Shown: positions 18,159 through 37,850, numbered from the stretch's first letter. The stretch: 64,000 bases of DNA from Escherichia coli (GCF_024502345.1 NZ_JALDNN010000001.1), one strand, 5' to 3'. Notes: generated by a model not told the origin, from the letters alone. Program-made: numbers and translations.

Positions 18159-18177
18159 AATTGTTGTCTCTTTGATT

Positions 18178-18295
18178 ATGTACAATCATATGTACAAAGA
18201 AAAATTCATGCCGCTGATTGTACATTTTGGAGGTATCAGAGCATAGCAGAACATGATCAGTAGGTGTATTTGTAGCCAAAGAACATTTGTACATG
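18178..18295. promoter_or_regulatory. Cluster of four (A/T)TGTACA(A/T) repeats, candidate integrase arm-type sites
   Basis: ATGTACAAT, ATGTACAAA, TTGTACATT, TTGTACATG just inside attL; a similar cluster sits beside int at 34670..34729. Confidence 0.45.
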
Positions 18296-18318
18296 CAGCA
18301 ATCTTTGTTCTATTGACA

Positions 18319-18362: not shown

Positions 18363-18377
18363 TGTAGAGGGATTTTT

Positions 18378-19165: not shown

Positions 19166-19201
19166 AGTCAACATATCCTGAATCAGACATACAATATTGC
19201 A

Positions 19202-19847: not shown

Positions 19848-20438
19848 ATGTCTCGAATTTTTGCTTACTGTCGGATATCAACGCTGGATCAGACCCCCGA
19901 AAATCAACGCCGGGAAATCGAAAGTGCAGGTTTTAAAATCAAACCTCAGCAAATAATCGAAGAACACATTAGCGGCTCAGCAGCAACCAGTGAGCGTCCT
20001 GGTTTTAACCGGTTGCTTGCTCGCCTGAAATGTGGTGATCAATTGATTGTGACAAAACTGGATCGCCTTGGTTGTAATGCAATGGATATCAGGAAAACAG
20101 TGGAACAACTGACCGAAACAGGTATCAGAGTGCATTGCTTAGCATTGGGGGGCATTGACCTGACCAGTCCAACAGGAAAAATGATGATGCAAGTAATTTC
20201 AGCAGTCGCTGAATTTGAACGAGACCTTTTACTTGAACGCACTCATTCCGGGATAGTAAGAGCCCGGGGCGCAGGGAAACGTTTTGGTCGACCACCTGTG
20301 TTAAATGAAGAACAGAAACAGGTGGTATTCGAACGAATTAAGTCAGGTGTAAGTATAAGTGCCATTGCCCGGGAATTCAAAACCTCGCGGCAAACCATTT
20401 TAAGAGCCAAAGCAAAACTTCAGACACCTGACATATAA
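19848..20438 (+). CDS. pin: Serine recombinase, DNA invertase (Pin/Gin/Hin family)
   Basis: [28 protein letters not shown]... resolvase catalytic domain plus C-terminal HTH. Confidence 0.9.
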
Positions 20439-20535
20439 AAAATAATCTCGGTGTGAGATGCTTTACGTCTTCCAAGCCCCCTTCCTTGCCGTAAATGGAA
20501 AGATACATCTAATTATAGAATTTATATGTTTTACC

Positions 20536-21117
20536 CTACGGCAGTGCTGGCCATTCAATATCCTGTGCAGTTGACGTATCAACACGGTTCAGCAATACCC
20601 GATACTTTTTCCATGCTTCCAGCAACGAGATTTCTTCCTCCGTTGCAATTTCCAGATCTGCAGCATCCTGAAGCGGCGCAATATGCTCACTGGCTACCTG
20701 CATCAGGTTGTTTTTTGTTTCTTCCGCCTCCCGGATCCGGAACAGTTTTTCTGCTTCCGTATCCTTCACCCAGGCTGTGCCGTTCCACTTCTGAAACTCC
20801 CCTTCCGGGGATAACCAAGTGACATTTTCCGGTAATGGGCCAAGTTCAGAAATAAATAACGCGTCGCCGGAAGCCACGTCATAGACGGTTTTACCCCGAT
20901 GGTCTTCAACGAGATGCCACGATGCCTCATCACTGTTGAAAACAGCCACAAAGCCAGCCGGAATATCTGGCGGTGCAATATCGGTACTGTTTGCTGGCAG
21001 ACCTGTATGAGGTGGAATATATGCATCACCTTCACCAATAAATTCATTAGTTCCGGCCAGCAGATTATAAATTGTTATGGTCCGTGGTTGTTCACTCATT
21101 CTGAAATCCATGTTCAC
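20536..21117 (-). CDS. tfa: Tail fibre assembly protein (Tfa)
   Basis: 193-aa ORF with Tfa-like sequence, immediately downstream of the tail-fibre-like ORF. Confidence 0.8.
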
Positions 21118-21119
21118 CT

Positions 21120-22022
21120 CTACTTAATATCAGAGACAGAATATTGTTTATTGAACGTATGGGTGTGAGCACCAATAACGATGCTACTTCCGTGGCTATG
21201 TGCGCCAGAGATGACATTACCTACGGGATTTTCTGGATTAATCCGGTGTATATGCGAACCAGGGCGAAACCGGTTATTAGCCTGATGTTGTATCAGTACA
21301 TCATCAGCCTGATGTTCAGGGTTAATACAGACCTGCCCGGAACGTGAGCAATACGTCCGATAATCGCCGCATCCAATATATTTAGTATCCGCATAACGGC
21401 AAACAGAATTACCCGGACAGTATGCATATGTGCCAAATACTGCCGACTGGCGGGATTGTGCGTATTCCCAGTTAATTGATTCTGTTTTTTTATTAAAGTT
21501 ATCCCATGCCTGCTTCATCTGCCGGGCAACACTTTCAAACGGCACCTGACCACATCCGGCTCCCATTGCAGGGAATACCACCGTTTTTATTTTCCTGTCT
21601 GTCGTTGCGTGTTTATTGTGCTGAAAGATGGCAAGCAGAGCGGCCCAGGTTGCGTTATATACAGCGTCTGTTCCGTCAATTGTCAGCGGAACACGCATTG
21701 TTGGCGCATGTACCAGCCAGGGATGATGATTATGCCCCGTTTCAATAACAAATGCAGAACCTACAGGCTGCTCGCCGAGATATTCACGAAGAATATGATT
21801 CTGAACGCGGGACTGTAACTGAGTACCGAAGAATGCGGTAATGGCGGCATCAACACCGCCATCCATCAGGCCGAAACTGTTTGCCGCACTTACCATGCAG
21901 TCAAATTCCCTGATTGTTTCAAATGGCTTTCCGACAATATTCACATTATCTGCATTTGCGAATACCCGCTTAAATGCTTCAGCCATTTCTGTTACTGGTG
22001 CAGAAAGAATGAGCGTAATCAT
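21120..22022 (-). CDS. Macro-domain-like protein with a Cys-rich, HxH-repeat C-terminus
   Basis: Motifs [30 protein letters not shown]...[21 protein letters not shown] resemble the macro (ADP-ribose binding) fold; C-terminus GAHSHG...GAHTHT resembles tail-fibre HxH repeats. Confidence 0.55.
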
Positions 22023-22170
22023 GCAAGCCTCACAATATAGTTAAATGCGATGTTTTTGACGGTGTTTTCCGCGTTACCAGCAGCGTTAACGGTGATGGTG
22101 TGTCCATGTGACCCTATCGCAACGGAGTGCGTATGAGCACCAATACCGACAGTATGCGCGTGTGCACCTG
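22019..22170 (-). pseudogene. C-terminal fragment of side tail fibre (Stf) protein
   Basis: ...[51 protein letters not shown]; canonical Stf C-terminal end; N-terminal part missing. Confidence 0.7.
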
Positions 22171-22204
22171 CAGATACTGCTGTAAAAACGCATGAAATGT
22201 GCCG

Positions 22205-22892
22205 ACTCGTTAGCGGCTTTTTCGATCTGGCAGGAGCCTTTGATTTTAGGCGTCGAGCCGCGAATGGATTTTGGCCATACAGAGCCCTCAATACGTTTAT
22301 CCCCCAGCAGGGTTGGCGAACCCTCTTTTTCAACATCCGGTTCGAACGAGGAAAGTTCGTCATAGCAGACCACATCCACGGATTTTTCACGGTAGTTTTT
22401 GGCGGCAGCGCCGCCCAGGCACCATAAACCGACGCCCGATGAAAAGCGTTTCAGCGTGAGGGTATTATCACGATGTTTACGACCCAGCCATGGGGAAAGG
22501 TCTTTCAGGCATGGCACGTCCCTAATCGTCGTCTCCACGTGAGACTTCATAAAATCTTCAGCGGCAGAATCCGTGGGCTGAAAAAGCAGACTGTTTCGGG
22601 ATTTATGCTCAATAAAATACCCGACCACCCCCAGCAACATCTTTGTATAGCCAACACGGGCAGATTTAATCAGATTAACTGTGCGGATCTGATCATTCCC
22701 CATACTGTTCATGATGGCGATCTGGAACGGCAGCGTTTTCCATTCGCCGTCACCGTATGAGGATTCTTTCGGCAGATAATAATACTGATCAGCCCATTCA
22801 ACTGCCGTCATCGGTACAACCCTGACCAGAGGCTGCAGCGCAACCGAAACGGCAGCCATCAGATTATTCAGTTGTTGCTCTGATATATTCAT
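22205..22892 (-). pseudogene. Terminase large subunit (lambda gpA-like), N-terminal fragment only
   Basis: MNISEQQLNNLMAAV...TAVEWADQYYYLPKESSYGDGEWKTLPFQ...[34 protein letters not shown] aligns with lambda A residues ~1-250, then the frame degenerates into the stf fragment. Confidence 0.8.
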
Positions 22893-23367
22893 CCAGCAAA
22901 TCCGGTAATTTATCCCCTGCCCGCGCACACTGATTTGCGCCCTTCGCAATAAGGGTTTTCAGATGGTCAAGATGACGTGGCGTTAAATCCGGGAACTGTC
23001 GCTGCATGGATAACGGAATAGAATCAAGCGTACTGGACAATGCCATCGCCAGCTTGCTGAGGGCGAAAACGCAGAAGTCTGAATCGATGAGCTTACCTTC
23101 GGTTACCTGATTTTTAAGTTTTTGAGCTACGGCCTGTTCTTCTGTCAGTTCAGCTCTGGCCCGAAGCAGCCTTTCCTCCAGATCGCCCCCGTCATCAGGT
23201 GTTCTATGATTGTGTTGTCGCCGCTCGCGATCTATCTCCAGTACAGTTTTAACGTCATAAAAAACTTCCCTCCCCCGACGCTCGACAGGAGGAACGCCCC
23301 ATTTATCAAATGCCTGAACAGAGATACCGATGGAGGAGGCCATATCACTTTTATTCAATAAAAAGGC
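22864..23367 (-). CDS. Terminase small subunit (lambda Nu1-like, NohA/NohQ-type)
   Basis: MAFLLNKSDMASSIGISVQAFDKWG...LPLSMQRQFPDL...LDEYI resembles Nu1. Confidence 0.8.
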   Translation of the reverse strand, partial: AFLLNKSDMASSIGISVQAFDKWGVPPVERRGREVFYDVKTVLEIDRERRQHNHRTPDDGGDLEERLLRARAELTEEQAVAQKLKNQVTEGKLIDSDFCVFALSKLAMALSSTLDSIPLSMQRQFPDLTPRHLDHLKTLIAKGANQCARAGDKLPDLLDEYIRATTE

Positions 23368-23797
23368 CATCTCCTCTCCATAAGTCATCGATAAAAAGCG
23401 ATACAACAACCATGTGTTTTTACAAAACCATTTGATATCATTTAATTTTTTCACATTAATGACATCAAAGCACATCGTAAGGTTGTTGTATTTATTTTAT
23501 TTTCACCTTACTTATCAATTAGATATACCAAACAATTAAACAACAACCACCCCCTCAAAAAATCTCATAAATAGCGAAAAACCGCGAGGTCGCCGCCCCG
23601 TAACCTGTCGGATCGCCGGAAAGGACCCACAAAATGATAATAATTATCATCTACATATCACAACGTGCGTGTACGCCATCAAACCACGTCAAATAATCAA
23701 TTATGACGCAGGTATCGTATTAATTGATCCGCATCAACTTAACGTAAAAACAACTTCAGACAATACAAATCAGCGACACAGAATACGGGACAACCTC

Positions 23798-23989
23798 ATG
23801 TCAACGAAGAACAGAACCCGCAGAACAACAACCCGCAACATCCGCTTTCCTAACCAAATGATTGAACAAATTAACATCGCTCTTGATCAAAAAGGGTCCG
23901 GGAATTTCTCAGCCTGGGTCATTGAAGCCTGCCGTCGGAGACTAACGTCAGAAAAGAGAGCATCTACATCAATCAAAAGTGATGAATAA
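23798..23989 (+). CDS. YlcI/YnfO-family small prophage protein (DUF3950-like)
   Basis: MSTKNRTRRTTTRNIRFPNQMIEQINIALDQKGSGNFSAWVIEACRRRL; divergent from Nu1 as in DLP12/Qin. Confidence 0.65.
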   Translation: MSTKNRTRRTTTRNIRFPNQMIEQINIALDQKGSGNFSAWVIEACRRRLTSEKRASTSIKSDE

Positions 23990-24242
23990 TGAATATCCCG
24001 GTTTCTTTACCTCCCCTCCCACCCCGCACAGGACTGGCGAACGTGTGGGACAAATATGTGAGTCATAAACGCCTTATCTTCAGAAATGCAGTTGGCATCC
24101 GAACAGGACGATATTGTAACTTCACCTAATTACGAGGCATTGCAGTAGTTGAATTGTAGTTCTGTATTAGCCTGACAGTGACAGAATGCGATATTGACTC
24201 TGTCACAGGTGAAATAGTTTGAATGGTTAGCAGTTATGGCGA

Positions 24243-24449
24243 TCAGTCAACCACCAGGGAATAATCCTTCGAATTCTTATCGTGCTTCACCAACGCTGCC
24301 TCAATTGCCCTGAATGCTTCCAGAGACACTTGATGTTCTATACATGCAATTACAACATCCGGATAACTCATAGAAATGGTGCTAGTGAGCATAGTTTTTA
24401 CACGGACCTGATCCAAGGATGAGTCATCAGTGTATTGATCTTTATGCAT
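24243..24449 (-). CDS. Hypothetical prophage protein
   Basis: 68-aa ORF in the position of ydfO-like genes; no motif recognised. Confidence 0.3.
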
Positions 24450-24744
24450 TTTGTCGCTCCATGCGTTTGCTCTTCACTTGCGGCTAAAAATATAACGTCA
24501 AATCACTCAGCATGAAAGTGTGAAAGTTTCAGCGCGTTTCCCTTACATAATCTGTCGTTTGTATTCTCTCCAGGCATACCGGAAAGACTAGGTATTGTCA
24601 CACAACCAATACCACCGACTATCGAGATTTATATCTATTCGGTAATGTTTAAATATAAAAAAACCCCGTAAAAACGAGGTTTATGGGTAAATTGTATTGT
24701 TGAATAGCATCTGATAAGAAATTGATGCTAATACTATAAACACA

Positions 24745-24918
24745 CTAGATTAAATCAATCTTGATATCATAGCTTTCAAGACCAGTCATTTTTTCCCGTG
24801 CAGTAAACTGGATACTGGTAACTTCTTTCCCGGTCTTTTTCTTAAGCTCAATAATTTTTTTTGTTATATATTCAGAAATATCTGCTTCTGTTTTTGTTTT
24901 TAACTCTTCAATGTTCAT
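24745..24918 (-). CDS. gnsB: GnsA/GnsB-family protein
   Basis: MNIEELKTKTEADISEYITKKIIELKKKTGKEVTSIQFTAREKMTGLESYDIKI resembles GnsB. Confidence 0.75.
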   Translation of the reverse strand: MNIEELKTKTEADISEYITKKIIELKKKTGKEVTSIQFTAREKMTGLESYDIKIDLI

Positions 24919-25090
24919 CATTTCCTCTTTTAGTCTGTTATGACTTTCCTGGTACACAGTAGTGTCAATTATATGGAGCAAACGTATAAAAGATAAGATG
25001 AAACATCGCAATAATCAACATACGACAGTCTAAATTTCGCACAAACAGATAAAGATGATTATCCTTTATTATCAAGGCATTAGAATGAAA

Positions 25091-25360
25091 TCAATTCAAG
25101 AGTCTCATTGCTGCTTCCAGAATTTCTTCTGAAGTTACATGTCGATCCGCTGCTACATAAATGACTTTATGATCTCCGGTCAGAGATGGAAACCCTGCAG
25201 CCATTACAGTGAGATGTGTTGTTTCGCCATTTGGATATTCACGCATGATGGTGTTAACTCCGGTCATCACTGGCACTACCATTGCTGGTTCAGAGTTAAA
25301 AAAAACTATTATTTTTTTCATGATGTTACCGTAATATGTGAGTATCCATCGACTAGACAC
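25091..25360 (-). CDS. Hypothetical prophage protein (ynfN position)
   Basis: ORF between the gnsB-like and csp-like genes; identity uncertain. Confidence 0.35.
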   Translation of the reverse strand: MSSRWILTYYGNIMKKIIVFFNSEPAMVVPVMTGVNTIMREYPNGETTHLTVMAAGFPSLTGDHKVIYVAADRHVTSEEILEAAMRLLN

Positions 25361-25592
25361 TAAGCAAAAAAGCTCCCGAAGGAGCCTTCATTTTCACTTT
25401 CTTAAATCTAACGACAGACGGCTAACATTTAAGTATTGTGAAATATTATCAAATGTAATCATCATTGATTTACAAAAGATACATTTTGCCCCGAAAGGAT
25501 TCCTGTCAGAAACATCAAAAGATGATGTTCTATACTGAGAACCATGGCAACACGGGCATCTAAAGTGAATATGGTTTGTAATATTTTCTACC

Positions 25593-25805
25593 TCAAAGTG
25601 CCACTACATGAACAGCCGCGGGGCCTTTAGGTCCGTTCTCAATACCAAATTCGACTTGCTGATTCTCAGTTAACGTTTTGAAATCGTTGCTCTGAATAGC
25701 TGAGAAATGGACAAACACATCTTTGCTACCATCTTTCGGCGTGATGAAACCAAAACCTTTTTCAGGGTTAAACCATTTCACTAAACCAGTCATTTTGTTA
25801 GACAT
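25593..25805 (-). CDS. cspI: Cold-shock protein (CspA family), prophage copy
   Basis: [38 protein letters not shown]... RNP1/RNP2 motifs; the paralog name is a guess from Qin gene order. Confidence 0.8.
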
Positions 25806-26174
25806 CATTATTACCTTTTGAAGAAGTGAGCCCTTGGGCAGAATGGTCCGAAAAAAAATATCAGAGAGAAAAACCAACAAGGAAATCTCAAGAGGTACAA
25901 ATAATAAAATTATAACAATGACTGCTTCAGATAATTTTGTAACAAACCAGAACACCATTAACGCATGATTAACCAACCATAGCAAGGATTACTTTTGTAA
26001 AGAAAAACACACGAATGAAACAATAGCTTTATTTATTAATAAAACGTGTCATTCTGTCTAATGACCTTTTATCTTACCCTTAAGATTTCAAGGATTTTGA
26101 CTCATGGAAGAGTCCTTTTTATTTAAATTTCACATTCAGCGCTAAAAATAATCCGATTTAATGTTAATCTACAT

Positions 26175-27196
<1,022 letters not shown>

Positions 27197-27301
27197 GGAT
27201 ATTTATCAGGATTTATCGGTTTCTGAACCCTGGATATGTTTATCTGTCCCGGCCTGTTGAATCAGGCGGGGAAAAGGTAAAGACAATCAAGAGGATTATT
27301 T

Positions 27302-27574
27302 ATGGACAATAACACCATTTCTCTACAGGAGTTGCTCGACTGCATTTCAAAGCTTCGGGATGATGTAAATGCCCTCACTGTTGCATTTTCATATTTGGCC
27401 TTATCAATTCCCAGAGAACAAATGCAACCAACACTGGCATCGCTCCTGCTTGAATCACGCAACCCCAAATGGTCCCAGGAACAACAAAATTCTTTCAAGT
27501 GGCTGGCGGCATTACTGGAAGAAAAATATGCTGGTAAAATTACCATTTCGGTGGAGTCTTCAGAGAATCAGTAA
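27302..27574 (+). CDS. Hypothetical 90-aa protein on the strand opposite to the lysis cassette
   Basis: ORF fills the gap between endolysin and ydfR-like gene; hydrophilic, helical-looking; no homolog recalled. Confidence 0.25.
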   Translation: MDNNTISLQELLDCISKLRDDVNALTVAFSYLALSIPREQMQPTLASLLLESRNPKWSQEQQNSFKWLAALLEEKYAGKITISVESSENQ

Positions 27575-27884
27575 TTCTTCCTGGTAGCTTTCCTTTGTAG
27601 GTTATCCACACATTCTGCGCCTCTAAAATTACGGGGCGCTTTTCCGGCGACTGCTCATCCCCTTCACATAACCCGGCTGCAACTTCCAGGAAGACCTGTC
27701 TGATGCTCCTTCTGGCTGCTGCCTCATAAAACTCCAGCGCGGCACCTTCAACACGGTCCAGCGAGATGTCCAGGTCAAAAATTTCACCGTCAAAGCGTTT
27801 TTTGTCCCTTAATGCTACAGTTACCGCAACTTTATTCTCAAAATTGCGGATCCCTTTCACAATCAGTTCATAGTTTTGTGTCAT
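27540..27884 (-). CDS. YdfR-like prophage protein (DUF1327)
   Basis: Sits between holin and endolysin as ydfR does in Qin. Confidence 0.6.
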   Translation of the reverse strand: MTQNYELIVKGIRNFENKVAVTVALRDKKRFDGEIFDLDISLDRVEGAALEFYEAAARRSIRQVFLEVAAGLCEGDEQSPEKRPVILEAQNVWITYKGKLPGRITDSLKTPPKW

Positions 27885-27888
27885 TGAA

Positions 27889-28104
27889 TTACTCTCCCCG
27901 TGCAACCTTACGCTTGTCTTCTTTAATCTTGAAATAAAGGTTTGTCAGGTACGTCAGCAAGCCAAATACCAGACTACCCAGCACACCGATTGCAGCCCAC
28001 TGTGACGGAGTTACTTTATCGAGTAACTGCAATGCCCAGAAACCAGCATTACCAGCCGATGTGCCATAGGCGATACCTGTTGTTAACTTATCCATTGATT
28101 TCAT
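27889..28104 (-). CDS. Holin (phage 21 S / EssQ-like)
   Basis: 71 aa with TM segments WALQLL...[15 protein letters not shown] and a charged C-terminus. Confidence 0.8.
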
Positions 28105-28322
28105 ATCCTCACCCCGATGTACACAGATGGTGCAATATGTTTGAAAAGATCGGAGTCTATGGGGTAGTTTTTATAGCAAACGTTGTTCTCAACGGCGCTA
28201 AAAAACAGACACATTAAAAATGTGGGTAATTATTTTAAAAGAAAATCATATATTAAATAATAATACGAGATATGTTTTCATATTTAGTGTACTGTATACG
28301 GCCATTTATACAGGAAAAGCCT

Positions 28323-28493
28323 ATGTCAGAACGTAAAGACTCAAAATCACGCCGTAATTATCTCGTTAAATGTTCCTGCCCAAACTGCACCCAAGAGTCA
28401 GAACACAGTTTTTCAAGAGTACAAAAAGGTGCCCTTTTGATCTGCCCTCATTGCAACAAAGTATTCCAGACAAATCTTAAAGCTGTAGCTTGA
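28323..28493 (+). CDS. Small zinc-ribbon protein (CxxC...CxxC)
   Basis: MSERKDSKSRRNYLVKCSCPNCTQESEHSFSRVQKGALLICPHCNKVF; AGGAAA RBS. Confidence 0.4.
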   Translation: MSERKDSKSRRNYLVKCSCPNCTQESEHSFSRVQKGALLICPHCNKVFQTNLKAVA

Positions 28494-28552
28494 TTGATTT
28501 TATTCGTAACAAGTATTTTTTATATTTTAATAACATATTTAAAGCAGATAAT

Positions 28553-28577
28553 AAAAAACCCGCCTGAGCGGGTTTAA
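28553..28577. terminator. Hairpin ACCCGC-CTGA-GCGGGT with flanking A/T runs
   Basis: Perfect 6-bp stem with T-run on the minus strand. Confidence 0.5.
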
Positions 28578-28856
28578 TATTGTGGTACTTTTTGTGGGAG
28601 TCATCCACTTACGCACTTTGTTTTGCTATGCCAGCAGTTAGCTTCTGCTGTAAAACTATTCATGCAGCAAACCTGCACTTCACCACAATGGTTAGCATAC
28701 TTTTCCTGATTAAGTTATTGCCAAATATGCTGGCCATTGTTTCATGTATTGGACCTCCTTACTCTTTATTAAAGAGATCCAATATTCACCACTCTGTCTG
28801 TATCTCCACTCAGGCATCAGCCTTCTTCGTTATCGTATACAGACAAACTATGAATT

Positions 28857-29072
28857 TTAATCAGTAATTATGACATTTGCTGCTGCAGGACCTTTAGCAC
28901 CACTCTCTACAGAGAAGGTAACCTTTTGACCTTCAAATAAGATTCGATAATTATCATTCTGAATCGCAGAAAAATGCACAAACACATCTTTACTACCATC
29001 AACAGGAGAAATAAAGCCAAAACCTTTATCAGCGTTAAACCATTTTACTAAACCAGTCATTTTATTTGACAT
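28857..29072 (-). CDS. cspB: Cold-shock protein (CspB-like)
   Basis: [38 protein letters not shown]... Confidence 0.85.
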
Positions 29073-29372
29073 TCTACATTCCTTAACTTGAGCCTTTCGG
29101 CATAAATGGCTTGTATAACAGAAACGACTTCGTACTTAATTGGAGAGACTCAAAGAAGGAATAAGTGAATAACACCTGAAATGAGAACTGCTTTAGTAAA
29201 CTACTTCGTATATCGTCTGTTCTTCAAACCGACGCAATCATTAACGCATAGTTGAACATATGAAGCAATGTTTATTTTAGACATCCAGCCATCTTCAACC
29301 CCATCAAAAAACTATAGCTTTCTTCAGGAACGTGTGTATAGTGCGCCAAGTTATCAGTATTAAGGAATTTTT

Positions 29373-29585
29373 TTGTCCCGTAAAATGACAGGAATTCTCA
29401 AAACCTTTGACGGCAAAAGCGGCAAAGGTCTTATAACCCCATCCGATGGTCGTATCGATGTCCAGCTTCATGTTTCAGCGCTCAATCTCCGCGATGCAGA
29501 AGAAATTACCACCGGATTACGCGTGGAATTTTGCCGGATAAATGGTCTGCGTGGACCATCAGCTGCCAATGTTTACCTTTCATGA
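29373..29585 (+). CDS. cspF: Cold-shock-like protein (CspF/CspH-like)
   Basis: [39 protein letters not shown]... Confidence 0.8.
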
Positions 29586-29880
29586 GCTATATTAAAGCTT
29601 TAACTTCAAGCCCCATCGAATCAAACATGGAGAGTTTTCATGAATAAACCCGTCTGTCTTGATGACTGGTTGATTGGCTTTAAAAGCTTATGCTGTACTT
29701 TGACCTTAATAGCTCTGCTAATAATGTAATAAGCAGACTCATTGTATCTATGGACATTGTACTGGAAGAAAACATTTTAAACATCAGGCAAAAAACAAAG
29801 TCACCCGATAAATAATAAGTAAACTAACATGAATCCCGTAATGAGATTCAACATCTCTATTACCCTATTTAAAGCACAAA

Positions 29881-29905
29881 AACCCGCTCATCAGCGGGTT
29901 TTCTA
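29881..29905. terminator. Candidate late-operon terminator (tR'-like) downstream of Q
   Basis: CCCGCT-CATC-AGCGGG stem with T-runs on both strands, ~110 bp past the Q stop. Confidence 0.5.
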
Positions 29906-30007
29906 CTTTTTCTTAACTTCGGGTATACAAAGCCCATCGTTGAAAAAATTTTATCCATATTTTTTGAAAAATGCAAGCATCACGTCGCCATCTTCGGCGA
30001 AAATCAC

Positions 30008-30760
30008 TTATCTCGTCACCTTTCTCAATTGTGCTTCAGCGTAAGATTCCTCCTGCCAGCACTTTGTAACCAGTTTATCAATGACATTTGCATATCCTTT
30101 ATACCACTGATAATCACTCAGGTCCGGTACCAGCTTCTGGACATGATGCCGCGCCAGTGTGGTTGGTAAACGACTAAACCGTTTTCCATTGCAACGCCCA
30201 CAAATCTTATAAACAGGTGTGCCATGAAGCCGGGTCCTTTTTTCATCCAAGACAATACCTTTACCCTTACACCCTCTGCACGCTGTGCTGACTTCTCCCT
30301 TACCATGGCAATGCTGACATAGTTCCTTCACCCACTCTTCTTTGATAACAGATTCCCCGCTTCTGGAGTGTTTCACCACTTCGCGCAATACATTATGAAA
30401 TCCAGTACCAGCACAATGCTCACAACGAGCCTTACTTGCCGCAGACCTGGAATAATCAGCAAAGGCAAAATTCACAAGGTAAGGAATAATCTGTAGCCGG
30501 GTTTCTTCACTCAATTTATTCAATGTCGGGTTATCCAGTGCCATCGCGTAATTGAGCAGACCTTCAATCGCAAACTGAGGATCCTGAACACCAACTTTTG
30601 CCAGGAATAAGGCAAACCCAAGCGGTGCTTTCGACTGCACCATCCCCTGCGCAGCCATCACATCCGTAATCGTTAAACCACCAGAGCCTGTCGCCGGTGC
30701 GTCATCACTCAATTTTGGAGATTTTGGGGAGTAATATTTTGGTAAGGCTTCAAGGTTCAT
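30008..30760 (-). CDS. Late-gene antiterminator Q (QuuQ/phage 82 Q-like)
   Basis: 250 aa with Cys clusters CEHCAGTG, CQHCHGKG, CRGCKGKG, CGRCNG. Confidence 0.8.
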   Translation of the reverse strand: MNLEALPKYYSPKSPKLSDDAPATGSGGLTITDVMAAQGMVQSKAPLGFALFLAKVGVQDPQFAIEGLLNYAMALDNPTLNKLSEETRLQIIPYLVNFAFADYSRSAASKARCEHCAGTGFHNVLREVVKHSRSGESVIKEEWVKELCQHCHGKGEVSTACRGCKGKGIVLDEKRTRLHGTPVYKICGRCNGKRFSRLPTTLARHHVQKLVPDLSDYQWYKGYANVIDKLVTKCWQEESYAEAQLRKVTR

Positions 30761-30820
30761 GCTCGTTCTCCACTTACGCCAGTACGCCTATTGCCAGCGC
30801 ACGATCGATAAAACGAAATA

Positions 30821-31171
30821 TCAGCTCCAGCTGGGAGCCATACTTCTCTTCAAATGCCACGGTAAACGCTGGTTAATATCGGCATTGTCCACATCCTCGA
30901 CGTCAGGAAGAGACACAAAGACGCCATTTGCAGACTGCGCCACAGCGTCAGCAATGAAGTGAGTGCCACCAGCACGTTGTAAAATCATTGCCCATCCCAG
31001 CGGGAAAATCTGATCGCCATCGGCACGAAGGCGGTTAAATAATGCGTTCTCTGTTACATCCAGCCACTCAGCAGCTTCAGCGTACCCCACCGGCAACGCC
31101 GCGATAGTTTTTCTGACAGCTTTCACGTACCACTCAGGCTGTTTTTCCACTTTCCAGTGATGATTACCCAC
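30821..31171 (-). CDS. Phage regulatory protein, CII-like; possibly truncated
   Basis: 116-aa ORF overlapping the Cro-like gene stop and ending 60 bp before Q; no replication genes in between. Confidence 0.4.
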   Translation of the reverse strand: MGNHHWKVEKQPEWYVKAVRKTIAALPVGYAEAAEWLDVTENALFNRLRADGDQIFPLGWAMILQRAGGTHFIADAVAQSANGVFVSLPDVEDVDNADINQRLPWHLKRSMAPSWS

Positions 31172-31424
31172 GGCTTACCTCCTGTTCCTGTGGTTTAAAC
31201 CCATTCTGGTTTTGGCTAGATTGAAAACGTGCCGGATAAAGAATCTGCATTTCGCTGATTTCACCCTTAAAAAAATTGGCCAGACGTTCTGCAAGATCGA
31301 TAGATGGAATTTGTTCCAGTCTTTCAATACGACTCAGCGTCGCTGGATTGACCTGAACGCCAGCAGCAACATGCTGCAAAGTAAATCCGTGCGCCTTACG
31401 CACATTCCGTAATGGTGATTGCAT
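31164..31424 (-). CDS. Cro/antirepressor-like HTH protein
   Basis: HTH GFTLQHVAAGVQVNPATLSRIE; divergent from the cI-like repressor. Confidence 0.6.
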   Translation of the reverse strand: MQSPLRNVRKAHGFTLQHVAAGVQVNPATLSRIERLEQIPSIDLAERLANFFKGEISEMQILYPARFQSSQNQNGFKPQEQEVSRG

Positions 31425-31521
31425 ATGACCTCCACATATTGCGTGATGAGCATATTATTTCACGCAAATATTTTGCGCAAGTTGATTTGCTTAACGCGCA
31501 ATAAAGAAATGTAATAAACGC

Positions 31522-32214
31522 ATGAACATAGGAAACCGAGTCAGACAACTTCGCCAAGCGAAGAACATGAAAATCGCCGATCTCGCTGAAGCAATAGGAG
31601 TGGATGCGGCGAATATCTCACGCCTGGAAACAGGTAAGCAGAAACAATTCACTGAACAAGCCCTGAGTAATATTGCCAGGAGCTTAGGTGTTGATATTGC
31701 TGATCTCTTTACCTCAGACTTCAAAAGTAATACTGTATGTAAAAACAGTGTTAGTGAGGATGTTGCGCAGGTGAAGGATGTATTCCGTATTGAAATGCTG
31801 GATGTCAGTGCCAGTGCGGGAAATGGCCTTATCCAGGGCGGTGATGTCATTGATGTGATTCATGCCATTGAATACAGAACTGATAATGCTGTATCGATGT
31901 TTGGCGGACGGCCAGCCAATCACATTAAAGTTATCAACGTTCGTGGGGACAGTATGTGTCCAACCATTGAGCCAGGAGATCTCATCTTCGTTGATGTCAG
32001 TATCAATCAGTTTGATGGAGATGGTATCTATGTATTTGGTTTTGATGATAAAATTTATGTCAAACGACTGCAAATGATACCTGACAAACTACTGGTGATT
32101 TCTGATAACCAGATTTACCGTGAATGGGGAATTACCAGCGAAAATGAACACCGGTTTATGGTCTTTGGAAAGGTCTTAATCAGCCAGTCACAAACCCTTA
32201 AGCGACACAATTAA
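31522..32214 (+). CDS. CI-like repressor (HTH plus S24 LexA-type peptidase domain)
   Basis: N-terminal HTH IADLAEAIGVDAANISRLE; C-terminal GDSMCPTIEPGDLIFVD...VKRL Ser/Lys dyad. Confidence 0.85.
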   Translation: MNIGNRVRQLRQAKNMKIADLAEAIGVDAANISRLETGKQKQFTEQALSNIARSLGVDIADLFTSDFKSNTVCKNSVSEDVAQVKDVFRIEMLDVSASAGNGLIQGGDVIDVIHAIEYRTDNAVSMFGGRPANHIKVINVRGDSMCPTIEPGDLIFVDVSINQFDGDGIYVFGFDDKIYVKRLQMIPDKLLVISDNQIYREWGITSENEHRFMVFGKVLISQSQTLKRHN

Positions 32215-32234
32215 CCCTTACCTCCTCATCAATT

Positions 32235-32256
32235 AGCCACCCAAAGGTGGCTTTTC
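32235..32256 (+). terminator. Rho-independent terminator after cI
   Basis: AGCCACC-CAAA-GGTGGCT stem followed by TTTT. Confidence 0.65.
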
Positions 32257-32649
32257 ATTACCCTTTAAATTGCATATCTCGCAACAAAAACACTTGCATA
32301 ATGCGCAACTTCATTTTATCTTTCTTTCCAGACAAACAAACAAGGTACTAACAAAATTTGGTTGTAACACGGCGTATGGCACATGCGTCGTTAGCGGTCT
32401 GGGGACGTTAAAGGGGACAATCCACTCCTTGCTCGGGCAAACAAACCAGGTAGCCGGAATGTGCAAGTCAATGATGATGCTGATAAGACGCCTAACCAGC
32501 GTGGCGATTCGGTTTGACGCCTGGGAAGAGACCAGGGTGCAACGATGAGGGCATTTATGGAGCCGCGACAAAGTGTGGTGCCGTAACTGGCTAAGTGCTC
32601 TCAGCGTTGTGGTAATCCGCGAAATGGCGCGGCGGTAAGTATGGCGGGG

Positions 32650-33255
32650 TTACTCTTTCCCCGTTGAGGACACCGGATTGTCAGGTTGACCATACGCCTG
32701 AGTGACAACAACCAGACGATTCAGGGCAGTATCATCCGCCTTTTCCGGTAACAGCCCATGCAGGTATACAAGTCCATCCCAGCGGCTGTTTTTTGGAATT
32801 GGCAGCATCGGCGCTACATAGGCCTGAAAAGCCTGGCCTGTACGTTTAGCTGCCACATGAAAGAGACGGTCAAAGTTGGTAGTGACCAATCGAAGGGCAC
32901 CCTCGCGGCTACGGGCTAAACGTAACAGCGCCGCCTGAGTATCAATAGCGCCCCTACGACGGAACTTTGGCTTAAGGGCTTTTTCCAACGCGCGTCGGAC
33001 GGCTATACGCTGCCCTGGTAAGCGCCGTTCCAGCAAATCTAATGTGCCGTCAAATTGCCCACGCTCGAAAACCTCACGCTCAATTTCTGAAAGTGTTGTT
33101 CCGTTCCTCTGGTAAATTAGTTCTACCAACCCTTTGAAACCAGGTAAACCAGCAGGGTAGGAAATGCCTGCTCCACAGAAGAACACAACGCGCCCTTCCT
33201 CGTGCGCCTGCAAAAGCTCATCAGGAATATCAGGGCCGTTGGTAATGAATTGCAT
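32650..33255 (-). CDS. SIR2-like domain protein (short, 201 aa)
   Basis: VVFFCGAGISYPAGLPGFKGL (Rossmann GAG), VTTNFDRLF, LVYLHGLL match SIR2_2-type motifs as I recall them. Confidence 0.55.
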   Translation of the reverse strand: MQFITNGPDIPDELLQAHEEGRVVFFCGAGISYPAGLPGFKGLVELIYQRNGTTLSEIEREVFERGQFDGTLDLLERRLPGQRIAVRRALEKALKPKFRRRGAIDTQAALLRLARSREGALRLVTTNFDRLFHVAAKRTGQAFQAYVAPMLPIPKNSRWDGLVYLHGLLPEKADDTALNRLVVVTQAYGQPDNPVSSTGKE

Positions 33256-33437
33256 TCCTTTTCCTCCTATCCAATGTGCACGTTCATTCGAGTAAATGAA
33301 GGCAAGGGGTTACATCTTATTATACCGACCGTGCAAATCCGGCTTCCTAGCAAGCTACTTTACTTGCCAACTCATAATGTCCGAACTCCGAACAAAGCGG
33401 ACTGCTAGATTTGATTGCGTTCTAGCTACGCAAAATA

Positions 33438-34661
33438 TCATTTCGAGCCTAAACGAGTACAAGTAACAATCGATTCAACTCTCTCCCACCATGCCTGGTA
33501 GGCTTTACGCTGTTCTTCTAGATAATCACTCTTGTCATAAACTTGCCATACACCTGGCAGTTTATGACCGAGCATTATTTCAGCAATATGAGGCGCAGTA
33601 AGATCAGAAAAGTTTGTTCGTGCTGTTCGTCTCAAATCATGAAGAGACCAATGAGGAAATTGATACCCCAAACGCCGCCATGCGTACTGCATTAAATTGT
33701 AAGGCAGCGACTGCAATGATGTCCGACCAACTGGTTCCCTGCTTCCTTCCTTAGTAAAAAGCATATCGGAACCGTTGTTCATAGAGATAACGTATTTTAT
33801 AAGCTCTTCAACCGGTTCAATAATGGGCCGCTTTAGCGGTTCGCCTGTTATATCCCCTGTCTTATGTCGTTCTGGTGGTACAGTCCATATTTTATTAATG
33901 AAATCAAAATCGTCCACCTTGGCAGTAATTAGCTCTGAACTACGGCAACCAAAATGCAGCAATAGTTTAATGAAGGCCCGGTATTTAGGAACCATTCGAG
34001 AACCATCGATCGCAGCATAAAGGATTTTAATTTCATCATGTGTCAGAAACCGTTTCTTCTGACCTTTACGGATATCCATATCTTTACCCGTGATATCCGA
34101 CAGCGGGCGAGTTTCAATGAGCTTTCTCTTATACGCCCAGACATGGGCCTGCTTTGCGTTAATTAGCAATCGGTCTGCTATTGCTGGAGTCTTAGTGCTA
34201 AGAGGCTCCAGGACTTCTAACCAATCATGCAATGTAGCTGCATCGTGAGGGATATTCCCGATTTTAGAGAACAGGTGCAGCTCAAACGAGCGGAGTATCT
34301 GTTCAGAACCTTTTTTATTTTTTACACAATATGCTTCATACCAAGCACGGATCACAGATTCTACCGTCATGGCTTCAGTAGCTTTACGTTTTTCTGCCAG
34401 CTTGACCAATCGTGGATTGCGGTTTGACTCGAGTTCACCACGAAGACGGATAACTTCTTCTCTGGCCTCTTTTAGTCCAGTTGCCGGGTAAGTTCCGATA
34501 TCAAGACGCTCACCTTTCCCCGCCCACTGATAACGATATTGGAACACTACGCGACCTTTCGGTGATACTCTAACAGACAGACCATCACGATCGGATTTAA
34601 CCAAAACCTTATCACGTTCCTTTCCAAGGACTGAACGCAACCACGCATCAGACAGCGCCAT
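33438..34661 (-). CDS. int: Tyrosine integrase, P4-type
   Basis: 407 aa; N-terminal DUF4102-like arm-binding region (MALSDAWLRSVLGK...GLSVRVSPKGRVVFQYRYQ), C-terminal catalytic region with HDLRRT...LGHK. Confidence 0.9.
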   Translation of the reverse strand: MALSDAWLRSVLGKERDKVLVKSDRDGLSVRVSPKGRVVFQYRYQWAGKGERLDIGTYPATGLKEAREEVIRLRGELESNRNPRLVKLAEKRKATEAMTVESVIRAWYEAYCVKNKKGSEQILRSFELHLFSKIGNIPHDAATLHDWLEVLEPLSTKTPAIADRLLINAKQAHVWAYKRKLIETRPLSDITGKDMDIRKGQKKRFLTHDEIKILYAAIDGSRMVPKYRAFIKLLLHFGCRSSELITAKVDDFDFINKIWTVPPERHKTGDITGEPLKRPIIEPVEELIKYVISMNNGSDMLFTKEGSREPVGRTSLQSLPYNLMQYAWRRLGYQFPHWSLHDLRRTARTNFSDLTAPHIAEIMLGHKLPGVWQVYDKSDYLEEQRKAYQAWWERVESIVTCTRLGSK

Positions 34662-34669
34662 TACTCACC

Positions 34670-34729
34670 TTGTACAAATAACAAAAAACCTCTGCTGTTT
34701 TGTACATTATGTACAAGCACATGTACAGA
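34670..34729. promoter_or_regulatory. Cluster of four (A/T)TGTACA(A/G) repeats beside int, candidate arm-type sites
   Basis: TTGTACAAA, TTGTACATT, ATGTACAAG, ATGTACAGA within 60 bp of the int start. Confidence 0.45.
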
Positions 34730-34884
34730 TTTTTGATGAAAGTAACCTGATCAATTTAAAGTTACATGAAAGAATTTTCAATCAAAGAAATCACATAACA
34801 TCATGTTATTAAATGAGTTATATAATTATCACTCAATTAATCGAAAGGATTTTGAAAGAGTAAAAGAGCTTTTATTTGGGCTTA

Positions 34885-34956
34885 ATTATTGGGGTGAGAA
34901 ATAATGGCAAAAGTGCGGCGCTTCGCCACCTCTTGCAAATAAGGAGACAACGTCAT
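34885..34956 (-). pseudogene. prfC: Displaced ancestral 5' end of prfC ([22 protein letters not shown] then stop)
   Basis: Reverse complement encodes the remembered K-12 RF3 N-terminus for 22 codons, then runs into island sequence and stops. Confidence 0.8.
34892..34905. repeat. attR core: second copy of GGGTGAGAAATAAT
   Basis: Identical to 18098..18111. Confidence 0.7.
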
Positions 34957-35046
34957 AATTCTTTCTTCTTGAGTAAGCGGCATCGCGCCGCGCTTGTTGA
35001 AAACGAAAAATTGCGGCTATTTTACCCATCAACGGGGGGGAGGCAA

Positions 35047-35724
35047 TCAGTGTTTACACAGGAGCTGCTCCAGTTCGTGCAACGAAGAAACGGTCCAGGT
35101 GGGTGCGATGCCTTCTGGTTGCTCGCGATGGTGCGCATTCAGCCAGCAGGTCGCAAGCCCGGCGTTGATGCCACCGAGAATATCGGACTCGGCAGTGTCG
35201 CCAACCATCAGCACGCGTGAACGGTCAGGATTGCCCGCCTGTTCCAGCGCATAATCGAAAATTTTCTTATTCGGTTTGGCAACGCCAACTTCTTCGGAAA
35301 TCACCAGCAAATCGAAGTAATCACGCAGGCCCGTGCGTTCCAGACGCACTTGCTGCAAGGCGCTAAAGCCGTTGGTGATGATGCCGATTTTGGCGTTGCC
35401 ACAAATGGCGTTAAGCAGAGAAACCGCGCCCGGCAGCGGCGTACAGATTTCCGCCATCGCATTAATAAAGGCTTCGTTGAGTTTACCTGGCTCGACGTTC
35501 AGCCGTTCGGCCCAGCTCTCAAACCGCCCGTGCTGAAGCTGTAATGAAGTGATCGCGCCGTTTTGATAATCCACCCACAGTGGCTTGTTAACGGCCTGAT
35601 AGTCCTGAAAATCTTCAGCGGTAAAGGTGACGCTGTAATCAAGAAACATCCGCTGCAGGCCGGTGAATGAGTCAAAGGTAAACAGCGTTTCATCGGCATC
35701 AAAGAAAATCCAGTCCCACTTCAT
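35047..35724 (-). CDS. yjjG: HAD-family pyrimidine 5'-nucleotidase YjjG
   Basis: 225 aa [15 protein letters not shown]... HAD motif I. Confidence 0.9.
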
Positions 35725-35738
35725 TATTCCACCTTGTA

Positions 35739-36185
35739 TTACATACTGATTGGCAACGCCATGATGATGGCGTCTTCGCGACCGTCCGTGGTGGGGTAGT
35801 AATTGCGGCGAATCGTCGCCTCGTTAAAGCCTAAACTTTCGTACAGGGCAATGGCGGCAGCATTTGAAGCACGGACTTCCAGCCATAGTGTCGCCACGCC
35901 GCGTTTTTCCAGTTCGTCGATCAGATGTTCCAGCAGCGCCCTTCCCAATCCCTGACGCTGATAGTCAGGATCGACCGCAATATTGAACAATGTAGCTTCA
36001 TCCAGCACCACTTGCGTAATCGCAAACGCCGCCATTTTGCCGTTTTGCGTTAACTGAAAGTTGAGATAACGCTCGCCCTGGTTGCTGGCAAACGTTTTTT
36101 CACTCCACGGAAAGGCGTGGGCGCGTTGTTCAATGTGGTAAGCCGCTGGTAAATCAGTCGTTTCGAGGGAAGAAATCGTGTTCAT
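35739..36185 (-). CDS. rimI: Ribosomal protein S18 alanine N-acetyltransferase
   Basis: 148 aa GNAT fold, matches RimI. Confidence 0.9.
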
Positions 36186-36567
36186 ATGTGCAAATTTGTT
36201 GCCATAACGCGGCGCGTGCCGTTGGGTTTGCCCGTAAATCGGTGAGCGCCGGTGATGCCACCTGAGCGCCTTCCAGTGATAGCGGTTCGTCAGTACCCAA
36301 CCGCCAGCTGTTGCAGCGACTGCCTTGCGGCAGCATCGCGATTTTTTCTGGCGTCAGTTGCAGCACTTGATCGGGGCTGACGGTTAATGCGCGCAGAACA
36401 TCGCTCACTAAAGGATCAGTCAGGGCGGGAAGATCGTTTGCCACCATCACCAGACGGACGTGTGCCGGGATCGCAATGGCAATCTCCCCCTGCAACGCGC
36501 CAGGGCGACGCAGCGACCACTGGGTAATGCCCAGTTGCTGTAACTGCCAGTCTCGTCGGGATGTCAT
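36154..36567 (-). CDS. holD: DNA polymerase III psi subunit
   Basis: 137 aa MTSRRDWQLQQLGITQW... Confidence 0.9.
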   Translation of the reverse strand: MTSRRDWQLQQLGITQWSLRRPGALQGEIAIAIPAHVRLVMVANDLPALTDPLVSDVLRALTVSPDQVLQLTPEKIAMLPQGSRCNSWRLGTDEPLSLEGAQVASPALTDLRANPTARAALWQQICTYEHDFFPRND

Positions 36568-36669
36568 AGCGAATCGCTCCTGTTGTCAGGGGCGCAAATA
36601 TAGCAAATTCGTCGATACCGCGCCAACATATGGCTATAATCGCCGCCAGTATCAATTGAGGAGCATTCC

Positions 36670-37701
36670 ATGTCTGCATTTACCCCGGCAAGTGAAGTCT
36701 TGCTGCGTCACAGTGATGATTTCGAACAAAGCCGTATTCTGTTTGCCGGAGACTTACAGGATGACCTGCCCGCGCGTTTAGATACCGCGGCCAGCCGTGC
36801 TCATACCCAGCAATTCCACCACTGGCAGGTGTTAAGCCGCCAGATGGGGGATAACGCCCGTTTTAGTCTGGTCGCCACGGCGGATGACGTCGCAGATTGC
36901 GATACGCTGATTTACTACTGGCCGAAGAACAAACCGGAAGCCCAGTTCCAGTTGATGAATTTACTTTCTCTGCTGCCGGTGGGGACGGATATTTTTGTCG
37001 TTGGCGAGAACCGCAGCGGCGTGCGCAGCGCCGAGCAGATGCTGGCAGATTATGCGCCGTTGAATAAAGTCGACAGCGCTCGTCGCTGTGGACTCTATTT
37101 TGGTCGTCTGGAAAAACAGCCAGTATTTGATGCGGATAAATTCTGGGGCGAATACAGCGTCGATGGCCTGACGGTCAAAACGCTGCCTGGCGTGTTTAGC
37201 CGCGACGGTCTGGATGTCGGTAGCCAGTTGCTGCTCTCGACGTTAACTCCGCACACGAAAGGTAAAGTGCTGGATGTCGGCTGTGGCGCGGGTGTGCTTT
37301 CAGTTGCCTTTGCGCGCCATTCGCCGAAAATTCGTCTCACCTTGTGCGATGTCTCTGCCCCGGCGGTAGAAGCCAGCCGCGCAACACTTGCGGCCAACGG
37401 TGTTGAAGGTGAAATCTTTGCCAGCAACGTCTTTTCCGAGGTGAAAGGTCGTTTTGATATGATCATCTCCAACCCGCCGTTCCACGATGGGATGCAAACC
37501 AGCCTGGATGCGGCGCAAACGCTGATTCGCGGCGCGGTGCGTCATCTTAATAGCGGCGGCGAGCTGCGAATTGTAGCGAACGCCTTCCTGCCTTACCCGG
37601 ACGTGCTGGATGAGACATTTGGCTTCCATGAAGTTATCGCGCAAACCGGGCGCTTCAAGGTGTATCGCGCCATTATGACCCGCCAGGCGAAGAAAGGTTA
37701 A
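36670..37701 (+). CDS. rsmC: 16S rRNA m2G1207 methyltransferase
   Basis: 343 aa; SAM-binding [11 protein letters not shown] and NPPFH motif. Confidence 0.92.
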
Positions 37702-37709
37702 TTATCTCG

Positions 37710-37850
<141 letters not shown>

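Follow-up and report, generated by a model that had tools for sequence, protein, structure and literature searches.

The defective prophage Qin of Escherichia coli K-12 has kept a repressor pair, the antiterminator gene Q and a lysis cassette, and its replication and head and tail genes are absent. Its late genes run in the order quuQ/ydfT - cspF - cspB - essQ - ydfR - rrrQ - rzpQ - cspI - ynfN - gnsB and, further on, ydfK and pinQ. The related phages PhiR63_1 (PV340573.1) and mEp460 and the full-length prophage at the prfC-yjjG site of E. coli O55:H7 CB9615 (NC_013941.1; here L005, our main reference) carry a segment of 5.3 to 6.1 kb reaching from ymfL to DUF968, an early-left operon with an excisionase gene (xis), and morphogenesis genes; the CB9615 prophage also has a complete dsr1. 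In phage lambda, the classical nin5 deletion takes out 2.8 kb between P and Q and makes late gene expression N-independent; O and P are untouched, and the phage is viable. A trapped, non-excisable lambda fragment that replicates kills its host, and lesions in O/P are found in the cells that survive (PMC3640518). In incomplete prophages, genes for replication, packaging and release are lost preferentially, and integrase and tail fibre genes are kept (PMC7744054).

Here we describe a 16.5-kb prophage remnant, positions 18175-34727, in a 64-kb window of E. coli DNA, the window being the whole stretch that was analysed. The remnant lies between prfC and yjjG. It belongs to a well-known kind of element, and as a decay allele it is ordinary, of recent origin and restricted to one lineage. 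It is highly probable that it represents a defective (cryptic) lambdoid prophage made by three internal small-homology deletions.

The remnant between prfC and yjjG

The chromosome adjoining the remnant carries prfC on the left, as placed by collinear alignment to the annotated L004, and yjjG-rimI-holD-rsmC-leuQPV on the right, which marks the host chromosome as one of the Escherichia coli type. The remnant shows the features of a defective prophage, with an integrase gene near one end, short direct repeats at both ends, and a site that in other strains holds prophages with different content. The two repeat copies, identified as the longest word common to both island ends and then extended, match at 20 of 22 positions. 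Likewise, the backbone is lambdoid according to Pfam and PHROGs, with divergent cI (HTH and S24) and cro, a CII-type gene, Q, and a holin-endolysin-spanin cassette, in the gene order of the isolated phages PhiR63_1 and SfV. The ancestor was a lambdoid prophage of roughly 50 kb of the Qin / mEp460 / PhiR63_1 type. Compared with the collinear intact phage, the replication, excision and morphogenesis modules are absent or truncated. The features of the remnant are collected in Table 1.

Table 1. Features of the prophage remnant and its right flank, in window coordinates
Feature	Position	Strand	Evidence or remark
attL-side repeat copy, imperfect 22-bp direct repeat (ATTATGTACAAtCAtATGTACA)	18175..18196	.	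left end of remnant, just upstream of prfC
Pin-type serine invertase	19848..20438	+	PF00239 Resolvase, E 4.6e-36, and HTH_7; homolog annotated 'recombinase family protein'
Tail fibre assembly gene tfa	20536..21117	-	PF02413 Caudo_TAP, E 3.7e-43
Macro-domain gene, between tail fibre gene and tfa	21120..22022	-	PF01661 Macro, E 7e-19; PHROG 2613
Deletion junction 3, 2-bp overlap	22183..22184	.	last ~165 nt of tail fibre gene fused to codon ~236 of large terminase
Small terminase (Nu1-type), retained	22864..23475	-	PF07471 Phage_Nu1, E 2e-20
cspI-type cold-shock gene	25593..25805	-	PF00313 CSD; annotated cspI in L004 and L005; own cspA-type 5'-UTR thermoregulator at 25566-25963 (Rfam RF01766, 112.5 bits)
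Spanin rzpQ	26175-26666	-	PF10721 DUF2514, E 1.8e-38; embedded Rz1-type ORF 26219-26515
Endolysin rrrQ	26663-27196	-	PF00959 Phage_lysozyme, E 8e-25
ydfR	27540-27905	-	PF07041 DUF1327, E 1e-42
Holin essQ	27889-28104	-	PF04971 phage-21 holin S, E 1e-33
cspB	28857-29072	-	PF00313 CSD; cspA-type thermoregulator 28794-29233 (Rfam RF01766, 152.8 bits)
cspF	29373-29585	+	PF00313 CSD
Late-leader region downstream of Q, candidate PR' and candidate tR'	29879..29970	-	TTGCAT-17-TAAAAT, read by eye; putative role
Antiterminator Q (ydfT/quuQ type), intact, 250 aa	30008..30760	-	PF03589 Antiterm, E 1.5e-53; PHROG 127, E 2e-108
DUF968/ydfU (HNH-type) 3'-terminal 91-nt remnant, residues 299-329 of 329	30774..30864	-	tblastn; L005 14594-14684
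Deletion junction 1, GTA microhomology	30862..30864	.	5,274 bp missing (L005 14685-19958); three-way base alignment
Truncated ymfL, residues 1-103 of 183	30865..31171	-	phage-186 CII / CP76 family; tblastn
cro-like HTH repressor gene, 86 aa	31164..31424	-	PF01381 HTH_3, E 6e-10; annotated Cro in PhiR63_1 and mEp460
Divergent cI/cro control region	31425..31521	.	candidate operators TTGC-N7-GCAA at 31439 (1 mismatch) and 31487; motif search, putative operator function
cI repressor, HTH and S24 autopeptidase, 230 aa	31522..32214	+	PF00717, E 6.5e-19, and HTH families
Terminator-like hairpin and candidate OL/PL	32235..32320	+	hairpin 32235-32252; exact TTGC-N7-GCAA at 32270 and 32294; putative
Deletion junction 2, AAC microhomology	32707..32709	.	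6,775 bp missing (L005 21804-28578)
dsr1 (anti-phage sirtuin) N-terminal remnant, 546 nt	32710..33255	-	~183/1,275 codons; PF13289 SIR2_2; tblastn
Tyrosine integrase, intact, 407 aa, P4-type arm-binding domain	33438..34661	-	PF00589, PF13356, PF22022; PHROG 1
attR-side 22-bp repeat copy	34706..34727	.	right end of remnant, 45 bp past int start
yjjG	35047-35724		right flank of remnant

The remnant resembles Qin in its late and cargo module and in the RefSeq names of the homologs (ydfT, essQ, rrrQ, rzpQ, cspB/F/I, ynfN, gnsB, ydfK), as well as in being a defective element that has kept and lost the same kinds of genes. However, it occupies a different site, prfC-yjjG, has an immunity region of the cI/cro/ymfL (mEp460/PhiR63_1) type rather than dicA/dicC, has other deletion end points and, at ~0.1 % from its intact relative, is far younger. 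The closest match is to the CB9615 prophage, which shares the attachment site and the integrase and is 99.8-99.9 % identical over all retained blocks. PhiR63_1 and mEp460 are 95-97 % identical over cI-cro-ymfL (97 % for PhiR63_1), and PhiR63_1 has the same Q, csp and lysis genes.

The retained genes differ little from those of intact relatives. Q shows no differences from that of the CB9615 prophage, and the rrrQ/rzpQ region is 99.9 % identical to L005. One residue of cI differs from the CB9615 protein, and the GDSM and K-R-L motifs of S24 autopeptidases are present; the immunity region as a whole looks complete. Between Q and the lysis cassette, cspB and cspF form a cargo that is made up of the same genes in PhiR63_1; indeed, all four cold-shock genes (cspF, cspB, cspI and ydfK) have the same positions in PhiR63_1 and in the full-length CB9615 and 06-00048 prophages. 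The macro-domain gene is native to this phage type, with the same arrangement in 109 complete genomes and in the prophage of strain 06-00048 (L009), which is nearly complete, has a full morphogenesis arm and served as the reference for deletion 3.

Three deletions mapped against intact relatives

Synteny comparison with intact relatives (CB9615, PhiR63_1 and 06-00048), which the initial annotation had proposed as a check, showed collinearity and placed the missing segments to the base; the deletions are a structural and not a statistical finding. In megablast searches of phage genomes and 5,426 complete E. coli genomes, the Q-to-cI segment always split at window 30864/30867. The left half (Q and ~100 bp) matched an antitermination protein gene next to DUF968, and the right half matched ymfL, cro and cI. 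Window 23552-30864 corresponds to L005 7373-14684 with 99.89 % identity, and window 30862-32709 to L005 19956-21803 with 99.84 % identity.

Deletion 1 runs from ymfL codon 103 to a point 91 nt short of the end of DUF968/ydfU, taking the 3' 44 % of the former gene and 899 of the 990 nt (91 %) of the latter. With CB9615 as the reference, the genes lost as a whole are DUF4222, an O-like replication initiator, yfdN/PerC, dam, a LexA-like gene (the product of which carries a LexA_DNA_bind domain), rusA and KilA-N, and those from yfdN/PerC to KilA-N make up the nin-equivalent block. The O-like initiator (313 aa; PHROG 391 'replication initiation O-like', E 9e-136) was the sole replication-initiator gene. 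In PhiR63_1, 6,064 bp separate the same breakpoints and hold Rha, an O protein gene, yfdN, dam, rusA and ydfU.

The CII-like open reading frame was said at the outset to stop 60 bp before the Q start (30760), which we confirmed; the interval between them holds no gene. This ORF (30821-31171, minus strand, 116 aa) consists of the truncated ymfL followed by ~14 out-of-frame codons from the 3' end of DUF968/ydfU, and the apparent 60-bp gap is made up of the leftover DUF968 3' end and the native 13-bp spacer between DUF968 and Q. Against PF06892, a model of 146 positions with a gathering threshold of 26 bits, the window ORF scored 16.2 bits over positions 5-91 only. The full-length ymfL homolog scored 52.1 bits over positions 5-141 (E 8.6e-14) and also matched PHROG 101 'CII-like transcriptional activator' (E 5e-69). 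As the window ORF scores below the threshold and over part of the model, it is a truncated remnant of a CII-like family member.

The absence of replication (O/P-like) and nin genes between the CII-like gene and Q, likewise noted initially, is explained by the 5,274-bp deletion mapped against L005. When 18 proteins, taken from the deleted segments and from related phages, were searched against the window by tblastn, three truncated remnants were the only matches. No replication genes were found in the whole 64-kb window, island included, with four replication-initiator alleles from related phages, nor were there homologs of any other lost gene, the queries including Rha, dam, rusA, KilA-N, xis and yfdPQR. 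The observation that the initial annotation had named as its refutation, functional replication genes in the island, was therefore not made.

Deletion 2 removed the early-left operon between cI and int. Window 32707-37770 aligns with L005 28576-33639, and yfdP, yfdQ, yfdR, yfdS, DUF551, the excisionase gene and the C-terminal 86 % of dsr1 are gone. The lost excisionase gene (L005 24900-25094) was recognized by PHROG 1553 (E 7.7e-36) and had a sub-threshold Pfam score; its ORF is unannotated in the CB9615 RefSeq record. What is left of dsr1 matches residues 1-189 of CB9615 Dsr1 by tblastn and forms an ORF of 201 aa (32650-33255), which carries a partial SIR2 domain and continues past the junction to 32650. 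The integrase gene had been described as lying directly beside cI, which is incorrect, as 495 bp of native cI-downstream sequence and the dsr1 remnant lie in between. Xis, N and recombination genes had been described as missing from this interval. This holds for xis, which deletion 2 removed, but the absence of N and exo/bet/gam is not a loss, because the intact relatives carry neither a lambda-type N nor exo/bet/gam. A search downstream of cI in the intact relative yielded no convincing ORF for an N-like antiterminator.

Deletion 3 removed all head and tail genes (portal, head, tail, J, lom). Its size is about 21-24 kb, or 23.6 kb relative to L009, in which a 2.4-kb ISEc10 is present. In blastn alignments, window 17565-22184 corresponds to L009 49901-45282 and window 22183-27240 to L009 21669-16613. 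The large-terminase remnant retains a PF05876 GpA_ATPase match in ORF 22086-22949. With no excisionase, replication initiator or virion genes left, the remnant is predicted neither to excise nor to replicate, and to yield no particles.

All three joints are clean, have 2-3 bp of microhomology and pass through ORFs at arbitrary positions, and base alignment revealed neither IS sequence nor filler or extra bases at them. Such joints suggest RecA-independent illegitimate recombination (slippage or microhomology end-joining) rather than IS action or site-specific recombination. An IS element could instead have landed in the early-right region, deleted adjacent DNA and later been lost. In O111 strains the same interval is indeed replaced by a truncated IS1203, and the genome of the window has IS elements (e.g., an IS30-type transposase ORF at 40434-41585). 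However, at joint 1 phage DNA meets phage DNA over a 3-bp microhomology without an IS remnant or added bases, and losing an IS precisely, along with flanking DNA on one side only, would take two steps and be unusual, which makes this route very improbable.

We regard it as extremely improbable that the island is not a deletion product at all, whether through assembly collapse or as a naturally small element (a phage-inducible chromosomal island [PICI] or satellite). The size of the remnant and its layout of integrase and repressor are superficially satellite-like. However, each joint truncates an ORF that is full length in 99.9 %-identical prophages, and both early-region joints are reproduced in two independent assemblies, which rules out an assembly artefact. 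A satellite is ruled out by the gene content: satellite-type primase/rep, capsid-redirection and packaging genes are absent, as are replication and hijacking genes of the PICI kind, and the remnant instead holds terminase and tail fibre fragments of a helper-type lambdoid genome. With its three microhomology deletions mapped against a 99.9 %-identical relative, the remnant records prophage decay cleanly and at a very early stage.

Distribution and age of the allele

Junctions 1, 2 and 3 were each found in none of the 5,426 complete E. coli genomes, and a search for the junction in GTDB species representatives returned 0 matches. An exact 30-mer across junction 1 is present in two other assemblies. 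Collinearity with the window over both junctions 1 and 2 was observed in a human-gut metagenome contig of 2.7 kb (UERX01007950; 99.93 %) and in a provirus that IMG/VR lists for an isolate genome (UViG_2660237951_000013; 99.95 %). The allele is real and rare, and its occurrence is limited to a narrow lineage. No intermediate alleles with a single or double deletion were found among the 5,426 complete E. coli genomes.

The remnant differs from the CB9615 prophage at ~12 positions in 11 kb (~0.1 %), whereas the adjoining yjjG-rsmC chromosome differs by 1.15 %. This disparity indicates that the hosts had long diverged when the phage entered their lineages or passed from one to the other, and that the deletions are younger still.

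Loss of replication and retention of the regulatory and lysis genes

The suggestion in the initial annotation that regulatory, lysis and cold-shock functions had been selectively retained is unsupported. The cold-shock genes are normal cargo, and clean joints of 2-3 bp microhomology that cut ORFs are the signature of untargeted illegitimate recombination. At a divergence of ~0.1 %, compared with 1.15 % for the adjoining chromosome, decay is so recent that purifying selection could not yet be seen in the genes that remain. A domesticated module would be characterized by long vertical inheritance and purifying selection while the rest decays; the remnant, with 0 occurrences among 5,426 genomes and ~0.1 % divergence, does not fit this description.

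The early-right region has been lost more than once. A defective prophage of the O111 EHEC lineage (e.g., in O111:H- 11128 and O111:H8 7-32 9A) has the same cI/cro/ymfL and Q alleles (95.4 %) and has independently lost the same interval. In contrast to the remnant, its loss is IS-associated, with ymfL at full length, then a truncated IS1203 and 564 nt of DUF968; it lies at another chromosomal site and has become fixed in a clone represented by 32 complete genomes. A further independent loss has occurred in strain Z0117EC0005, at the same prfC site, where a cro gene of the YdaS type directly adjoins the 252 nt that are left of DUF968. Together with the remnant, these alleles suggest repeated loss of the interval from cro/CII to DUF968, and the recurrence of cro/ymfL-to-DUF968 loss at different breakpoints argues that early-right loss is not purely random.

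By analogy with lambda, this recurrence is consistent with the counter-selection known to act against replication in trapped prophages, and it agrees with the published tendency of incomplete prophages to lose replication genes (PMC7744054). Loss of the replication module would be neutral or favoured, because origin firing in a non-excisable prophage is lethal, as shown for lambda O/P/ori. The RK- survivors of the Hayes laboratory are comparable in that a non-excisable lambda fragment was tolerated only after lesions in the initiator or origin, deletions included (PMC3640518), and the remnant has neither xis nor an initiator. However, the survivors arose in a laboratory selection with lambda O/P, whereas for the remnant we infer both the selection and the order of events. 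That the prophage was trapped first and lost replication afterwards is a conjecture.

A similar constraint may account for the genes that remain. Loss of cI alone would be lethal as long as Q and the holin-endolysin-spanin genes remain, and cI, cro and the Q-lysis genes would accordingly tend to persist together. Because the presence of Q and the lysis genes would forbid the loss of cI, the joint retention of regulatory and lysis genes is best read as a probable survivorship constraint rather than as domestication. The intact lysis cassette of the remnant runs against the general loss of release genes in incomplete prophages (PMC7744054).

Promoters, operators and terminators around Q and cI were assigned by pattern only. 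The late leader downstream of Q contains a hairpin with a U-tract (29879-29902, 10-bp stem) found by a terminator scan, and its fold has an energy of -44.2 kcal/mol (z = -3.3). Three of the four exact TTGC-N7-GCAA matches in the window flank cI, the total count being not above chance. In promoter scans of the window and of the deleted segment, sites were not enriched over shuffled sequence. The terminator scan detected no strong minus-strand terminator between PR and Q in the remnant, and inside the deleted segment of the intact relative there are only weak minus-strand candidates. A weak hairpin (30822-30840, z = -1.4) lies between the cro promoter region and Q and might lower read-through into Q.

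Given this arrangement, Q would now lie ~700 nt downstream of PR (PR-cro-ymfL'-Q), and SOS cleavage of cI would directly turn on Q and the lysis genes. Because deletion 1 placed Q near the cro promoter region, switch-on would be expected without the usual 5-6 kb of early genes, and we predict from the gene order that the Q and lysis cassette of the remnant can be turned on by SOS. The lambda nin5 deletion is similar in that a deletion upstream of Q shortens the distance from PR to Q, but the deletion in the remnant also cost it the replication initiator, along with half of its CII-like gene. The likeness may be regarded as a functional analogy only, because neither an N system nor nin terminators have been demonstrated in this phage family.

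One could propose that the remnant was adaptively domesticated, the deletion having been selected as it placed Q, the lysis genes and the cold-shock cargo under cI/PR as an SOS-triggered autolysis or release module without replication or N. In agreement with this, none of cI, cro, Q and the lysis genes is damaged, with Q identical to that of the intact prophage and close to PR without a strong intervening minus-strand terminator; the cspB and cspI genes retain their own thermoregulator leaders; the allele is present in three independent data sets; and the immunity region has been joined to truncated DUF968 and Q independently in three lineages. However, at ~0.1 % divergence intact ORFs are expected without selection, the intact phage carries the csp genes as its standard cargo, the breakpoints hit ORFs at arbitrary positions over 3-bp microhomology, and the allele, found in none of the 5,426 complete genomes, has not spread. 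We therefore consider domestication quite unlikely. A related proposal is also unlikely, namely that the remnant forms a minimal SOS-inducible suicide or release circuit (cI, PR-cro-Q, PR'-holin-endolysin-spanin) without replication or the nin delay, and that recurrence in three lineages would reflect selection for this circuit, or for Q-driven cargo expression without replicative killing.

The truncation of dsr1 means that a defence gene was lost along with phage genes. For annotation purposes, the 'CII-like' and 'SIR2' ORFs are pseudogene fragments.

Divergence and deletion of prophage DNA

The prophage DNA (window 23576-34700) was approximately 0.1% diverged from that of E. coli O55:H7 CB9615, while the neighboring chromosomal yjjG-rsmC region (window 34900-37770) was 1.15% diverged. 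This roughly 10-fold-lower divergence of the prophage implies that the phage was received by already diverged hosts through recent horizontal spread. The cro/ymfL-to-DUF968 interval, which encodes the replication initiator, has been deleted twice more, independently, in related prophages.

Downstream of Q, a stretch of about 140 bp (window 29925-30065) matched two places in phage PhiR63_1, which bracket a segment of ~1.55 kb containing small open reading frames (ORFs). Strain 06-00048 carries this segment as well, but the window and CB9615 lack it; its presence or absence may reflect a direct-repeat-mediated indel.

Integrase-proximal and tail-fiber genes

An excisionase ORF lies between the DUF551 gene and dsr1 in the CB9615 prophage and is unannotated in the RefSeq record of that strain. 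It falls within the segment removed by the second deletion in the window. The anti-phage sirtuin gene dsr1 adjoins the integrase gene in CB9615 and persists in the window as an N-terminal remnant (a partial-SIR2 ORF). In strain 2013C-4974, dsr1 carries a different truncation (540 amino acids [aa]), with an IS3 element alongside. The phage genes and the dsr1 defense gene are decaying together.

The macro-domain protein gene of the window is flanked by the tail-fiber gene and tfa, with the Pin invertase adjoining, and the C terminus of its product carries HxH-type motifs, as in tail-fiber tips. The same tail-fiber/macro-domain/tfa order was found in 109 complete E. coli genomes, where the sole annotation of the gene is "macro domain-containing protein." The neighboring tfa gene contains an Rfam match to the IS009 sRNA.

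Chromosomal elements

In CB9615, yjjQ and bglJ overlap directly, whereas an IS30-type transposase ORF lies between bglJ and the rest of yjjQ in the window; the yjjQ-bglJ operon therefore appears to be interrupted. The chromosomal sequence of the window also contained two Rfam matches to REP-derived naRNA4 elements.

Coordinates of the features discussed (L005, CB9615 prophage locus; L002, PhiR63_1; L008, strain Z0117EC0005; L001, O111-lineage prophage)
Feature	Position	Strand	Details
Macro-domain gene	window 21120-22022	-	300 aa; PF01661
IS009 match	window 20570-20768	-	Rfam gathering score; 220.9 bits
dsr1 remnant	window 32650-33255	-	~14% of gene
dsr1, full length	L005 25297-29124		1,275 aa
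Excisionase ORF	L005 24900-25094 (NC_013941.1 about 5311699-5311893)	+	64 aa; PHROG 1553, E 7.7e-36
cro/ymfL-to-DUF968 deletion	L008 17681-18114 (NZ_CP098223.1)		dog isolate; same prfC site
cro/ymfL-to-DUF968 deletion	L001 9824-11874 (NZ_CP077585.1)		IS1203-associated; common to 32 O111 genomes
Matches to window 29925-30065	L002 3303-3443 and 4996-5136		
bglJ	window 39533-40210		
IS30-type transposase ORF	window 40434-41585	+	383 aa
yjjQ remainder	window 41505-42116		
naRNA4	window 24-102 and 13137-13215	both -	Rfam gathering score
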